From Escherichia coli (GTDB lineage Bacteria > Pseudomonadota > Gammaproteobacteria > Enterobacterales > Enterobacteriaceae), in assembly GCA_009729775.1 (NCBI GenBank), contig GCA_009729775.1_4081.1: a DNA stretch of 64,000 nucleotides; one strand, given 5' to 3'. Below are positions 56,363-60,929 of this stretch, piece after piece (position 1 is the stretch's first letter; each line of letters begins with the position of its first letter). The translations under genes were made by a program, and so were the position numbers. The notes beneath the pieces were generated by a model. That model had not been told where the DNA came from. It ran no database searches and saw only the letters and a program-made list of their open reading frames with translations.

Positions 56363-57475
56363 TTAGAACATTTGTTTGATTGCTTCGTAACGAAGTTCAC
56401 AAACAAAATCACGAATTTCTGACGTTTCAAGTTCACCATCTTTGACCATTTGCTGAATATCAGGCAATTCAACATCAGTATAACGATCATAAACTTTAAT
56501 AATTAGATCTTCAAGTTCTAAATCAATTTCTTTTCGCAAAATGAAGTATTCCAAAACTTTATAAAGGAATTCTTCACCTCCGTTATTTTTAATATTCATA
56601 TCCAATAAAATATTACCCATTTCAATAGGGGTCTTTTTACGGAATGTTTTGATATCATCACGGAAACGTTTGATATAATTACTAAATTTAACATACTTAA
56701 CTGGAACTTTAATAGCACCGTTAAGTACTGAATCATTATTTACTTCTTCATTTTCAAGAAGAATAGACCACAGAAAATATGGTTTATATACATCCGTACA
56801 GTTCTCTGCAATATAATCAATAAGGTCTAAATTCTTTTTGGTCAAAGATGTATTAAACACCTTTTCGTAATAACCAAATTTACTTAGCGTCTTAAGGAAC
56901 TTTGCAGGCTTTTCTTCGGAAAATGCTTTTTCGAATTCCACAAAAACACGGTCAGGAACAAGATGATTTAGTTCACCACTATTGACCATTCCAATAGCGA
57001 GTTCCTCAGTGCTTTCATGGATAGTAAAGTCTGAATAACGAGTAGCAAATCGAGCAAGACGTAACACGCGTAATGGATCTTCTTTAAAATGGTCAGAAAC
57101 ATGACGTAGTATCTTGTTCTTGATATCAGCTTTACCACCGTATGGATCGATGTGAATTTGTAGTACTGGATCATACGCAATTGCATTAATTGTAAGGTCA
57201 CGGCGATACAAATCTTGTTCTAGTGTTACGCCTTTTGTATCCACTTCAAAGCCACCATATCCAGTACCAGTTTTACGCTCAGTACGGGCTAATGCGTGTT
57301 CATTACCTTCTGGACTTAGATATACTGGGAAATCCTTACCTACTTGCTTATAGCCAATACTTTGCAAGTACTTAAGATCAGATTCGGATGCACCAACAAT
57401 GACATAATCTTTGTCTTTTGCACGGATGCCCATTAAACGGTCACGGACGTAACCGCCAACCAAATACTTTTTCAT
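56363..57475 (-). CDS. cca: CCA-adding tRNA nucleotidyltransferase (class II head domain)
   Basis: MKKYLVGGYVRDRLMGIRAKDKDYVIVGAS parallels E. coli Cca MKIYLVGGAVRDALLG...DRDWVVVG; the RRDLTINA motif is present. At 370 aa it is shorter than E. coli Cca, so an HD domain is probably absent. Confidence 0.85.
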   Translation of the reverse strand: MKKYLVGGYVRDRLMGIRAKDKDYVIVGASESDLKYLQSIGYKQVGKDFPVYLSPEGNEHALARTERKTGTGYGGFEVDTKGVTLEQDLYRRDLTINAIAYDPVLQIHIDPYGGKADIKNKILRHVSDHFKEDPLRVLRLARFATRYSDFTIHESTEELAIGMVNSGELNHLVPDRVFVEFEKAFSEEKPAKFLKTLSKFGYYEKVFNTSLTKKNLDLIDYIAENCTDVYKPYFLWSILLENEEVNNDSVLNGAIKVPVKYVKFSNYIKRFRDDIKTFRKKTPIEMGNILLDMNIKNNGGEEFLYKVLEYFILRKEIDLELEDLIIKVYDRYTDVELPDIQQMVKDGELETSEIRDFVCELRYEAIKQMF

Positions 57476-57610: not shown

Positions 57611-58033
57611 TTAAATTAATCTATCACGTAGACGGTCGTAATATTTTTTGTGTATAGCTAGTATACACTGATATGCAGAATAGTCAATACCAAATGTATC
57701 ATCAATGAACATGTACTGATCAAGTGTTTCCGGTCCATTATCATCAACTGGTAATGTCCCTTCTTTTTTTGATAGTGTGTGCCACATCAACTCACTTTCA
57801 ATATGGTGAGTTGCGTATGTCAATTCTATCTTACTTTTTCGTAGTAAAATTAACAATTCATCATTGTCGTCGAGTGCATTACGAAATTTAATACGAACTG
57901 TACCCTGGAAATTATTAGTGTACATAACACGATGATGATTGTATGAAATCAAACCACGTCTTTCAGTACTGATTTCGTGTTCAGCAAAGTACTTTAACGT
58001 TTCATTAAATTTTGGAATTTTAGTAACGTCCAA
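57611..58033 (-). CDS. hypothetical protein, paralogue B
   Basis: C-terminal EGTLPVDDNGPETLDQYMFIDDTFGIDYSAYQ is paralogous to the upstream gene; apparent TTG start behind GAGGA, overlapping the upstream gene by 14 nt. Confidence 0.6.
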   Translation of the reverse strand: MDVTKIPKFNETLKYFAEHEISTERRGLISYNHHRVMYTNNFQGTVRIKFRNALDDNDELLILLRKSKIELTYATHHIESELMWHTLSKKEGTLPVDDNGPETLDQYMFIDDTFGIDYSAYQCILAIHKKYYDRLRDRLI

Positions 58034-58436
58034 TCACATAATCCTCATAAAGTTCGTATACCCTCATTATACTCTGATATGTATCAAAGTCAATACCAAA
58101 GGTATCCTCAATGAACTGATATTGCAAAAACTCTTCCTCTGTAGCAGCAATAGGAAGAGTCCCGTTTCGTTGTTCTGTGGATTGAACATCCTCAATATAC
58201 ATCAACACTATACCTTCATCCAGATTTATATCTATCATAAAAACATCTTCACTATAAAATATGTTATATGTACGGATGAAGAGATTTCCTGTTCTATCAT
58301 AACTTGACACGTGTGTTTCATAATACATTTTATCTAAACTAAAGAACAAACCTGTACTATCTGGCTTTTTAGTATTTTTTAATTTAATTTCGATAGCATC
58401 AATAATAGGTTTAATATCAAATTTTTTCATAGACAA
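58020..58436 (-). CDS. hypothetical protein, paralogue A
   Basis: NGTLPIAATEEEFLQYQFIEDTFGIDFDTYQ; 138 aa. Confidence 0.6.
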   Translation of the reverse strand: MSMKKFDIKPIIDAIEIKLKNTKKPDSTGLFFSLDKMYYETHVSSYDRTGNLFIRTYNIFYSEDVFMIDINLDEGIVLMYIEDVQSTEQRNGTLPIAATEEEFLQYQFIEDTFGIDFDTYQSIMRVYELYEDYVIGRY

Positions 58437-58625: not shown

Positions 58626-59021
58626 TTATAAAAAGTAATTATACAGTTTATTGTACAATATAAAAAGGTCTTTCACATTATCATAAGTAATATCAGATAC
58701 ATCATGAATTAATGATAACTGAAAAAATGAAGCTTCGTCTATTTCTGCTGGAATTATAACATCACCATCGTCTTCGTCCATTTTATTAGTGTAGTATTTT
58801 ATGTGATCTACATTCAACTCAATAGAGAACGCAATGTTGGTTTTTGTATAATCTTCAATTAATCCAATATATTGAGATTTTTCATTAATAAAAAATCCAA
58901 TCCCAACACAACGGTTATCTGGATATGGATAGTACCATCTATTAATAACTAGGTGTTCAGGTAAGTCCATATCATGTGTTGATATTATAGATTTTACAAT
59001 TTCCATCCAGGAATAATTCAT
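58626..59021 (-). CDS. hypothetical protein
   Basis: 131 aa; GGAG SD; downstream of the HPF terminator. Confidence 0.6.
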   Translation of the reverse strand: MNYSWMEIVKSIISTHDMDLPEHLVINRWYYPYPDNRCVGIGFFINEKSQYIGLIEDYTKTNIAFSIELNVDHIKYYTNKMDEDDGDVIIPAEIDEASFFQLSLIHDVSDITYDNVKDLFILYNKLYNYFL

Positions 59022-59033
59022 AATTAAAACTCC

Positions 59034-59065
59034 ATAAGAAAAGGGACAGAATTAATCTGTCCCTT
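59034..59065 (-). terminator. terminator hairpin downstream of hpf
   Basis: AAGGGACAG-aattaat-CTGTCCCTT followed by a U-rich tract on the minus strand. Confidence 0.45.
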
Positions 59066-59074
59066 TAGTATATA

Positions 59075-59407
59075 TTACTCTTCGTTTTCTGTCAAATCAT
59101 CAAGAACTGGGTGTTCTGGATGGTTTCGGCGGTGTAATTTAATGCTTTTGTCTTTACTGAATACAGTTTCCATTTTTTCAAATGAATCACCAATTGCTTT
59201 GTATAAATCTGCTGCATCGGCAGTAACTGATTTACTACCTGATGTTAGAGTCACAGAGTATTGAGACTTATGCTCTTTCTTCACATGAACTTCAATATCC
59301 ATTACAGTTGAAGTACGGAACTTTTCAAGACATTTAGCACCATCGTAAATTGCATCTTGAATTGCTGTAGTAAAATCAACATTACCTTGAATATTTAATT
59401 TTAGCAT
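59075..59407 (-). CDS. hpf: ribosome hibernation promoting factor (HPF/RaiA/YfiA family)
   Basis: MLKLNIQGNVDFTTAIQDAIYDGAKCLEKF... aligns with E. coli HPF MQLNITGNNVEITEALREFVTAKFAKLEQYF and the C-terminal LYKAIGDSFEKMETVFSKDK with DMYAAIDGLIDKLARQLTKHK; AAGGTAGG SD. Confidence 0.75.
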   Translation of the reverse strand: MLKLNIQGNVDFTTAIQDAIYDGAKCLEKFRTSTVMDIEVHVKKEHKSQYSVTLTSGSKSVTADAADLYKAIGDSFEKMETVFSKDKSIKLHRRNHPEHPVLDDLTENEE

Positions 59408-59423
59408 AATTTACCTACCTTTT

Positions 59424-60383
59424 TTAGAGTGAACTTAACAACAAATCTGCTCGGTTTGTAACTTGACGATACCATAAGGAATTCATTATTTCTTTTTTAA
59501 ATTTCTTAGGGTTATCATTTTTTACACTGTTCCAAAGTTTATTAAACGAAGCTAACTTATCTACTCCCATTGTATAGCACATTTCAAAAAGAATACGTTG
59601 TTGTTCTTTGGTCAGATTTACTGCTTGTTTTTTCTGCATCAATAATAAAAAGTCATCATATGTTCTTTTCATATCTTGCATTAAAAGTTTGTTGGCTTGA
59701 GCTTTGGTAATACCGTTTCTGTACTTGATAGCATCAGATTCTTTTCTTCCCAAATAATGCCCATAACCGATTGTATAATTACCTTTCATATCCTTGTAAG
59801 GATGAAATTTAGAATTGTGGAAAGGAACTCCGACTTTCCCACCAAGTAAACGGCGTTTGTTCTTGGACTGAAATTCAATTGAACCTTCAGCTTCTTTGAT
59901 GTGATTGACAATTTCTGGATCATTATAATCAAACTGTACAGTCACATCTGGTAACAATACGTTCTTCAAATCCTCTTTTGTTGGGATAAAGATACCCTGA
60001 GAAGTATGAAGAGTAGCATTTAAATTGATATTTTTCAACAAAATAACATACTCTTCAAGTTGTACATTTTTAGGTTTAAACTTTTTAGCAATAGAATAAT
60101 AACTATCACCAGGTTGAACCGTATAATGCTTCTCGCCGCGTGGAACATCCTTTGATATTTCTACCTTTGGTAATTCCTGCTTTTGAATTTGCGTAACTTG
60201 TGGTTTTAAATTGTGTACCTGACTTTCGTCCGATGATGATACACGATCATTTTGAGAAAAACCATAAAATCCAATCGCAGCGACAAGTACTGTGCAAACT
60301 AGAACACCATAAGTAGTCTTAGTTTTCAGTGCTTTTTTCGCTTGTTTCAAAACGCCTCCTTTGTTGATTGTTAAGATGGGCAA
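59424..60383 (-). CDS. membrane-anchored lysozyme: signal-anchor + LysM + GH24 (T4 lysozyme-like) domain
   Basis: GNYTIGYGHYLG and SLWYRQVTNRADLL parallel T4 lysozyme YTIGIGHLL and SRWYNQTPNRAKRV; LysM-like YTVQPGDSYYSIAKKF; N-terminal TM helix YGVLVCTVLVAAIGFYGF. No ATG before residue ~200; candidate starts are the TTG at 60383 or the TTG at 60350, which lies 4 nt after AAAGGAGG. Confidence 0.85.
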   Translation of the reverse strand: MPILTINKGGVLKQAKKALKTKTTYGVLVCTVLVAAIGFYGFSQNDRVSSSDESQVHNLKPQVTQIQKQELPKVEISKDVPRGEKHYTVQPGDSYYSIAKKFKPKNVQLEEYVILLKNINLNATLHTSQGIFIPTKEDLKNVLLPDVTVQFDYNDPEIVNHIKEAEGSIEFQSKNKRRLLGGKVGVPFHNSKFHPYKDMKGNYTIGYGHYLGRKESDAIKYRNGITKAQANKLLMQDMKRTYDDFLLLMQKKQAVNLTKEQQRILFEMCYTMGVDKLASFNKLWNSVKNDNPKKFKKEIMNSLWYRQVTNRADLLLSSL

Positions 60384-60466
60384 TCACAAAGATGGCAAAG
60401 AGGCCATTTGCAAAAGCCTCATCGGACTTTCTACAGTACAAAAACGTTCTTTTCAAATGTTTAAGT

Positions 60467-60494
60467 AGTATAGCATATTTTTATTTTATTACAA
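60467..60494 (-). promoter_or_regulatory. sigma70-like promoter (TTGTAA-N16-TGcTATACT) upstream of the lysozyme gene
   Basis: Minus-strand -35/-10 pair with extended -10 TG; ~115-nt leader containing a GAGGC...GCCTC hairpin. Confidence 0.4.
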
Positions 60495-60518
60495 GACATA
60501 TTTACTGTAAAAACCACA

Positions 60519-60929
60519 TTAATCGTAGTAGGTTCTACCTACAGTTATGTGATATTTAAAGTACTTGGTTGGTAGTCCTAGTTCATTTCTAATATGTGTG
60601 ATGAAATCATCTTCAAATTCAATGATAAAGAATGAACCTGGATTCTTTTTATCTTTTACTATCTCAATACAAGGATTGAACTTTATCTTTACTTTCATTC
60701 CATCGTATTTTTTCCAGAACTCTTCATGTGGTGGTACTTCACCACGCACTATACTAACATGTGCTCCCCATTGAGGATCTTTAACGTCAATATGTAAATC
60801 AGTTCTGATGAAGTACTGGTAGTATCTAACCAACTGTAATGGAAGTTGCAGTACTAACCAGAAGTCCTTCTTCTTTTTCATAGTGCCACGGTCTGGATCA
60901 TACACCAGAGTTCCTTCCATTTCAATCAT
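60519..60929 (-). CDS. 2H phosphoesterase (LigT/Acb1-like cyclic phosphodiesterase fold)
   Basis: Two H-x-[ST]-x motifs about 70 aa apart (GAHVSIVRG and KYHITVGR), the hallmark of the 2H superfamily; 136 aa. Confidence 0.5.
   Translation of the reverse strand: MIEMEGTLVYDPDRGTMKKKKDFWLVLQLPLQLVRYYQYFIRTDLHIDVKDPQWGAHVSIVRGEVPPHEEFWKKYDGMKVKIKFNPCIEIVKDKKNPGSFFIIEFEDDFITHIRNELGLPTKYFKYHITVGRTYYD

Follow-up and report, generated by a model that had tools for sequence, protein, structure and literature searches.

A 110-codon open reading frame (ORF) in an Escherichia jumbo phage resembles genes for ribosome hibernation factors. This raises the question of whether the phage protein belongs to the HPF/RaiA family and, if so, what it would do to the ribosomes of the host. 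We analyzed a 64,000-nucleotide stretch of DNA (referred to below as the window) from an Escherichia jumbo phage that belongs to the 121Q/PBECO4 group (Asteriusvirus). A first-pass annotation, made from the sequence alone, had placed a phage-encoded hibernation factor at positions 59075 to 59407 without giving a strand. We found an ORF of 110 amino acids (aa), running from ATG to TAA, that occupies exactly this interval on the minus strand (Table 1). The 3 kb around the gene are 98.5% identical to Escherichia phage 121Q, confirming that the gene is phage encoded, and most of these 3 kb is covered in 31 jumbo-phage records. The gene product matches both 121Q gp533 and the SHEFM2K protein at 100% identity.

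The RefSeq name of 121Q gp533 is "HPF/RaiA family ribosome-associated protein," and orthologs elsewhere are named "ribosome-associated inhibitor A," "sigma 54 modulation protein/S30EA," or "ribosome hibernation promoting factor." The paper describing the Sharanji genome places the ortholog among translation factors. Proteins with the same Pfam domain, PF02482, have been reported in rV5-like phages and in jumbo phage GAP32 (Mizuno et al. 2019). A literature search combining jumbo phages with hibernation promoting factor matched no paper. Based on the RefSeq name and the study by Mizuno et al. (2019), we conclude that the identification of a phage HPF gene is correct and is not new: the gene was already annotated, and the concept was already published. 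Our analysis adds the RaiA-like architecture of the protein, the pattern of kept and lost ribosome contacts, the deep synteny of the gene, and a candidate promoter within the codons of its tail.

Table 1. Features at the HPF-like locus, with positions in the window
Feature	Position	Strand	Basis or remarks
Candidate sigma70-like promoter of the lysozyme/HPF-like unit, TTGTAA-16-TATACT with TG (extended -10)	60467..60494	-	Consensus scan
LysM and phage-lysozyme cistron, TTG start at 60350	59424..60350	-	Phage_lysozyme 45.4 bits, LysM 24.5 bits (Pfam); 121Q gene 532
Shine-Dalgarno sequence GGTAGG of the HPF-like gene	59414..59419	-	6 nt 5' of the ATG; 13-16 nt past the lysozyme stop
HPF/RaiA-family coding sequence (110 aa + stop)	59075..59407	-	ORF; PF02482 match; identical to 121Q gp533
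S30AE core, residues 1-94: b1(2-8) a1(14-30) b2(36-46) b3(49-56) b4(59-65) a2(68-94)	59126..59407	-	AlphaFold2, Foldseek
C-terminal extension, residues 95-110 (NHPEHPVLDDLTENEE)	59078..59125	-	pLDDT <50 for 96-110; acidic; RaiA-like length and charge
Candidate sigma70-like promoter of the downstream gene	59067..59095	-	-35 TTGACA 59095-59090; -10 TATACT 59072-59067; 11/12 consensus
Intrinsic terminator, stem AAAGGGACAG/CTGTCCCTTT then TTTTCTT	59033..59066	-	Directly past the HPF-like stop; hairpin 59066-59040

To place the protein in a family, we compared it with profile, sequence, and structure databases. A Pfam search, which the first-pass annotation had proposed as a check, gave a match to PF02482 (Ribosomal_S30AE) at 37.4 bits (gathering cutoff, 23.7 bits; E = 4.2e-9) covering residues 5 to 87 and model positions 2 to 84 of 88. 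The only other Pfam match was an overlapping, sub-threshold one to Dodecin. The alignment with E. coli HPF that had been made by eye proved real but weak (BLASTP, 26% identity over 92 aa; pairwise E = 6e-7), and E. coli RaiA aligned with 23% identity (E = 6e-5). The similarity to E. coli HPF is beyond chance. E. coli HPF was also the best match in a phmmer search of the PDB (E = 7.9e-4). The NCBIfam equivalog cutoffs were missed, with 30.0 bits against 40.9 for TIGR00741 and 18.3 bits against 125 for the HPF model NF007780. In PHROGs the protein has a family of its own (phrog_34864, unknown function), with a weaker match to phrog_8990 (S30EA family).

We then used AlphaFold2 to build a model from ten members of the clade. 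The model has a mean pLDDT of 77, with values of 80 to 90 in the core and below 50 for residues 96 to 110, and its predicted elements follow the family order, b-a-b-b-b-a. The best 38 Foldseek matches in the PDB were all HPF/YfiA/pY/RaiA chains, many of them on ribosomes. The best superposition was with E. coli HPF in the 100S ribosome (6h4n_x; target-normalized TM, 0.82; root mean square deviation, 1.9 Å). Ranks 39 to 49, after the HPF family, were double-stranded RNA (dsRNA)-binding domains of Dicer, DGCR8, and Staufen. Two other assignments were rejected. Dodecin (PF07311) scored 21.9 bits against a cutoff of 22.5, with weak NCBIfam matches, and there was no dodecin among the 50 listed PDB neighbors, which held the HPF family instead. 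Weak phmmer matches to the poxvirus primase D5/OPG117 (E = 0.007 to 0.035) had no structural or profile support and were attributed to chance. Syntenic orthologs in the phages Munch and Hallingskeid, which match PF02482 at 62.3 and 54.4 bits, respectively, also favor the S30AE assignment made in the first-pass annotation. Given the PF02482 match, the fold, and the structural neighbors, we conclude that homology to the HPF/RaiA family is secure. Equivalence to E. coli HPF or to E. coli RaiA is not secure.

We asked which type within the family the phage protein resembles. At 110 aa it is close in length to E. coli RaiA (YfiA, or protein Y; 113 aa), whereas E. coli HPF (YhbH) has 95 aa, terminates immediately past helix 2, and lacks a tail. 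The protein is hence not of the short-HPF type (~95 aa, ending just after helix 2). Nor is it of the long-HPF type (~180 to 190 aa in total), as Pfam and AlphaFold2 placed no dimerization domain past residue 94, where there is only the disordered tail. It does have the features of the RaiA type, namely, a single core followed by an unstructured extension (~18 to 23 aa expected past helix 2; 17 aa in the phage protein). The short acidic tail described in the first-pass annotation is present: RNHPEHPVLDDLTENEE lies past the HPF-equivalent end, carries a net charge of -5, and is modeled as disordered. Its length of 16 to 17 aa and its charge compare with 18 aa and -4 in E. coli RaiA, and the acidic ends are alike (EEVEEE in RaiA and ENEE in the phage protein). 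Acidic tail ends were also seen in bacterial RaiA-type representatives from our profile search. The RaiA tail is flexible and directed to the RMF site, and it presumably keeps RMF from binding and 100S ribosomes from forming. Because the phage protein has a single core and a tail like that of RaiA in length and charge, we conclude that its architecture is RaiA-like and single domain. The likeness to HPF claimed earlier therefore holds at the level of the family, whereas the architecture is nearer to that of RaiA than to that of the 95-aa HPF, and the equivalog cutoffs were not reached. The phage protein differs from RaiA in that it falls below the TIGR00741 cutoff, has lost helix-1 basic residues and R83 (see below), and has a tail of which part doubles as a candidate promoter.

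We next determined which ribosome-contacting residues are present, taking the contacts from the literature on short HPF in Gram-negative ribosomes and using an alignment with 32 bacterial homologs. The basic stripe of helix 2 is kept (K78, K85, and K87, corresponding to HPF K80, K87, and K89), as is the helix-2 signature D67-x-Y69-x-A71-I72. Also kept are K29, E45, T53, R93, and an aromatic residue, F30, in the place of HPF Y30, which stacks on A790. Within the clade, D67, Y69, A71, I72, K78, K85, K87, F30, K29, and T53 are invariant, and so is the basic b2-b3 segment V40-H41-x-K43-K44-E45-H46-K47; in HPF, the b2-b3 loop touches the ribosome. In contrast to these residues, three basic residues of helix 1 are lost (R17 to Q17, K23 to G23, and K26 to C26) at positions that are basic in 23 to 26 of the 32 bacterial homologs. 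Further losses are R83 (T81 in the phage numbering), K91 (I89), and the uS9-contacting pair H55/E60, in place of which the phage protein has T55 and a gap. All of these lost contacts are typical of the family and are not strictly defining. The core of the phage protein has a net charge of +1, which is unremarkable, since it lies between the values for HPF (-1) and RaiA (+2). We conclude that the predicted binding surface is partly kept and partly eroded and that binding at the canonical site is plausible.

To determine how the gene is distributed, we searched 1.84 billion representative proteins exhaustively with a profile. The clade was isolated, with the first non-members at an E value of ~1e-9, and a word-indexed protein search reached nothing outside the clade. 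The nearest proteins outside it (P0012 to P0015; 103 to 107 aa) are annotated as "ribosome-associated inhibitor" in other phages of ~350 kb, namely, Salmonella phages Munch, 7t3, and SE_PL and Klebsiella phage fENko-Kae01. Two very long metagenomic proteins that matched the profile, P0011 (1605 aa) and P0023 (1616 aa), were rejected as relatives, their scores being sums of weak repeat matches; P0011 (E = 2.8e-37) consists of ~29 tandem units of 55 aa, with the repeat matches at profile positions 44 to 82.

The order of genes around the HPF-like gene is conserved: lysozyme, the HPF-like gene, a few small ORFs, a CCA-adding enzyme, Nudix, and glutaredoxin/thioredoxin. This order is common to phages of E. 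coli, Erwinia (Hallingskeid, 46% identity), and Salmonella (Munch, 31% identity). The inhibitor of Munch, 7t3, SE_PL, and fENko-Kae01 (106 aa) thus lies, like the 121Q protein, between lysozyme and CCA-adding enzyme genes, and it shares the tail end (IDLTESDE) and the promoter-hairpin layout past the stop codon that is described below. It differs from the 121Q protein in that R17 and K26 of helix 1 are retained and in that it is nearer to bacterial HPFs. Since Munch and Hallingskeid score 62 and 54 bits on PF02482 and the 121Q clade scores 37 bits, the 121Q clade is the branch that has diverged furthest within a single old lineage. Among orthologs, dN/dS was 0.12 to 0.27 (Nei-Gojobori method; pairs without synonymous saturation), and 49 of the 110 residues, spread through the core, are invariant in the clade. 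These estimates indicate that the gene is under purifying selection across related jumbo phages. We conclude that the gene is old and has been passed on vertically among the 121Q/PBECO4 jumbo phages and related phages.

Other phages carry other members of the family. With E. coli HPF as the query we found ~130 other phage records, mostly of rV5-like phages together with the Xanthomonas jumbo phage XaC1, and the lineage studied here was absent from them; with E. coli RaiA as the query we found 11 phage records. The jumbo-phage lineage comprises ~43 records besides the ~130 that match E. coli HPF. The family has thus entered phages several times. The proteins of rV5-like phages (ABI79209, 105 aa) and of Cronobacter phage GAP32 (AFC21633, 111 aa) belong to the same Pfam family and come from large enterobacterial phages, but they represent separate lineages. 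The rV5 type, at ~44% identity, is found with the E. coli HPF query, whereas the 121Q type is not. The GAP32 protein (K4F6Q6) is a structural neighbor of the phage protein (TM, 0.82) with only 17% identity, and tblastn reached GAP32 neither from the protein in the window nor from P0012.

Partial copies of the gene occur in three Salmonella phage records (SD-1_S14, SD-15_S21, and SD-6_S16). They retain nucleotides (nt) 172 to 333, carry an in-frame internal deletion of 108 nt, or retain nt 211 to 333, and the DNA that remains is 100% identical to the window. We considered and rejected these copies as proof that the gene is dispensable. Because the deletions are clean, the identity is 100%, the lysozyme and neighboring genes are fragmented, and the genomes are 20 to 40 kb short, an assembly artifact (collapsed gaps) is likelier than gene decay.

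We next examined how the gene may be transcribed. The lysozyme stop codon lies 16 nt upstream of the start of the HPF-like gene, and this gap has no promoter or terminator signal. Upstream of lysozyme is a candidate sigma70-like promoter with an extended -10 element; it is kept in Asteriusvirus loci, and phages EJP2 and Hallingskeid have TTGACA-17-TAGACT at the equivalent place. Such promoter calls are consensus matches, and their number across the region is at the level of chance (44 found versus 42.9 expected). The predicted RNA fold of the terminator past the HPF-like stop codon has an energy of -19.2 kcal/mol (z = -3.6), and none of 200 shuffled sequences was equally stable. A hairpin of other sequence is found at the same place in EJP2, Hallingskeid, and Munch, and the Munch annotation lists terminators at the equivalent site. 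The upstream promoter, the unbroken gap, and the terminator together indicate that the lysozyme and HPF-like genes form a bicistronic unit. We conclude that the HPF-like gene is probably cotranscribed with lysozyme from a predicted host-type promoter and that a Shine-Dalgarno sequence of its own probably serves its translation; equivalents of this sequence (AGGT, GGAGG, or GAGGTG) are present at every orthologous locus.

The lysozyme gene is itself preceded by a conserved leader of ~100 nt (approximately positions 60351 to 60460, minus strand) with an invariant TGTAGAAAGTCC. In an RNAalifold analysis of this leader, GCCATCTTTGT pairs with the lysozyme Shine-Dalgarno region, ACAAAGGAGGC, and five compensatory pairs distinguish the 121Q-like clade from the EJP2/Hallingskeid clade. 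The arrangement looks like sequestration of the ribosome-binding site and is reminiscent of T4 gene e. A search of positions 58900 to 60600 against Rfam found no family at an E value of ≤1.

A second candidate promoter overlaps the end of the HPF-like gene itself. The last codons of the gene are GAT TTG ACA GAA AAC GAA GAG TAA. Within the tail motif DLTE, the codons for Leu and Thr spell a consensus -35 box, TTGACA, and TATACT follows 17 nt on, just past the stop codon and abutting the terminator hairpin. This layout (TTGACA, 17 nt, a TATAAT-like hexamer, hairpin, T-run, and ribosome-binding site) recurs in six lineages that are saturated at their other synonymous sites. Rare codons are fixed there: in the divergent lineages the tail Leu codon is TTG in six of six (genome usage, 0.17), the final Glu codon is GAG in six of six (0.13), and the Asp codon is GAC in five of six (0.21). 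The other invariant Leu of the gene varies among CTT, CTA, and TTG. Because the fixed rare codons coincide with the -35 box, conservation of DLTE..E reflects, at least partly, a constraint at the DNA level, and we dropped this motif as pure protein-level evidence. In phage A4 the -35 box has decayed to GTAACT and the tail is still acidic (DVTDEEE), which hints at some protein-level selection for acidity. The expected start of this promoter falls within the 5' arm of the hairpin, so its transcripts would be without the full terminator stem. GAG-TAA in the promoter spacer is invariant.

Just downstream of the HPF-like gene, and also on the minus strand, are three tandem ORFs of ~131 to 140 aa (57611 to 58033, 58020 to 58436, and 58626 to 59021) none of which matches a Pfam family. 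The first and second are clear paralogs (41% identity over the C-terminal 54 aa; E = 9e-12) that share the motif F-I-[ED]-D-T-F-G-I-D, and the third is only marginally similar to this pair (E = 0.006). A CCA-adding tRNA nucleotidyltransferase gene (56363 to 57475, minus strand) lies 1.6 kb downstream of the HPF-like gene, and Nudix, glutaredoxin, and macro-domain genes come next along in the 121Q annotation. Upstream of lysozyme, an ORF at 60519 to 60929 (minus strand) has a match to the 2H phosphoesterase "Swiss Army Knife" domain just below the threshold (26.0 versus 27 bits). The gene block thus has a flavor of RNA repair and translation maintenance. ARAGORN found no tRNA or transfer-messenger RNA (tmRNA) genes in the window; related phages carry seven to eight tRNA genes elsewhere in the genome.

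The rV5 protein, which belongs to another lineage and is 44% identical to E. coli HPF, is the sole phage HPF that has been tested: when expressed in E. coli, it was absent from high-salt-washed 70S and 100S ribosomes, and the level of 100S ribosomes was unchanged (Mizuno et al. 2019). The homolog of the Munch type in fENko-Kae01 (CDS_218) was detected with six spectra in the >300-kDa retentate of a lysate. The retentate also contained thymidine kinase and Nudix, so the retention was unspecific. The text of the phAPEC6 virion proteome study does not mention the HPF-like protein.

The roles suggested in the first-pass annotation, stabilizing ribosomes or interfering with translation shutdown, are speculative. 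We propose, at about an even chance, that the protein acts like RaiA, in that it would bind vacant ribosomes of the host, hold them as 70S monomers, and benefit the phage by shielding them. Like every characterized family member, it would bind in the decoding channel of the 30S subunit (A/P-site region), and its contacts would be made by the conserved basic stripe of helix 2, the aromatic residue 30, and the basic loop between b2 and b3. Bound ribosomes would be kept inactive as 70S monomers, with 100S formation driven by RMF and HPF opposed and dimers not promoted; we infer this outcome because a RaiA-like tail is present and the long-HPF dimerization domain is absent. For a phage with a long cycle, the probable benefit would be that idle ribosomes are shielded from nucleases, especially at the 16S 3' end and the decoding center. 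E. coli hibernation factors have been shown to protect 16S rRNA, and the shielding idea fits the surrounding RNA-repair-type genes. Another reading, which we regard as rather unlikely, is that the protein is no hibernation factor in the sense of the host and serves as a phage countermeasure, occupying the decoding channel of idle ribosomes to guard them against abortive-infection or stress nucleases of the host and against RMF/HPF dimerization. It would then be part of a conserved "translation-apparatus maintenance" block whose members are the CCA-adding enzyme, the 2H phosphoesterase-like protein, and the Nudix and macro-domain genes. Against the RaiA-like reading stand the negative rV5 result, the lost contacts, the missed equivalog cutoffs, and the overlap of the tail motif with a conserved promoter; nor is it obvious what a lytic phage, which depends on translation, would gain from a factor that blocks both the A site and the P site.

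The protein might instead be an anti-hibernation decoy, a weak or reversible competitor of host HPF, RaiA, and RMF for the same 30S site; in stressed or stationary hosts, ribosomes would thereby be kept out of the 100S state and left free for phage mRNAs. Competition with host factors is what Mizuno et al. (2019) proposed for viral HPF and bL31. The lost contacts at R17, K23, K26, R83, K91, and H55/E60 are in keeping with weaker binding, the homolog from rV5 was not retained when ribosomes were washed in high salt, and a RaiA-like tail would clash with RMF. However, the site is that of tRNA and mRNA, so any occupancy inhibits, and a release mechanism is not evident; moreover, the helix-2 stripe, the source of most contacts, is intact and invariant. 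We regard a decoy as rather unlikely. The protein might also be a host shutoff factor, made early from a host-type promoter and blocking initiation on free host ribosomes. The sigma70-like promoter with an extended -10 element upstream of the operon is consistent with this idea, RaiA is a known inhibitor that blocks tRNA access to the A site and the P site, and a passage in the Sharanji paper cites the targeting of ribosomes by jumbo phages immediately after infection. Yet phage mRNAs have no known feature by which to escape such a block, and the promoter calls are consensus matches whose overall number is at chance. A shutoff role is improbable in our estimation.

Alternatively, the protein might keep the fold and have been neofunctionalized, so that its target would no longer be the ribosome and might be, for instance, an RNA of the phage or the host. 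No branch has diverged further than the 121Q clade, at 37 bits against 54 to 62 for the syntenic orthologs, and it lacks the helix-1 basic residues that are kept in the Munch type; the next structural neighbors are the dsRNA-binding domains of Dicer, DGCR8, and Staufen, and the rV5 homolog showed no ribosome binding. On the other hand, the best 38 structural matches are all ribosome-bound family members, the invariant residues are those that touch 16S rRNA in HPF, and no result points to another partner. The probability of a new target seems small. Finally, the ORF might be kept mainly for its regulatory DNA, the -35 box in the last codons, with the protein being dispensable. The last eight codons contain fixed rare codons (TTG, GAC, and GAG), saturated lineages share the promoter layout, and some Salmonella phage records retain only the 3' part of the gene, at 100% identity. 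This explanation is contradicted by the purifying selection, which extends over all 110 codons and includes invariant residues throughout the core; in addition, the partial records look like assembly artifacts, and the tail of phage A4 is acidic even though its -35 box has decayed. We consider it very improbable, and the least likely of the explanations weighed here.

Phage homologs of HPF and RaiA are now common in databases, and the single published experiment was negative. As a discovery, the gene described here adds nothing to the existing annotation. As an experimental system, its lineage would be a sensible choice, being old and syntenic, subject to purifying selection, RaiA-like in shape, and able to infect E. 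coli K-12. Knockouts should spare the last ~30 nt of the HPF-like gene, because a promoter of the downstream gene is apparently located there.
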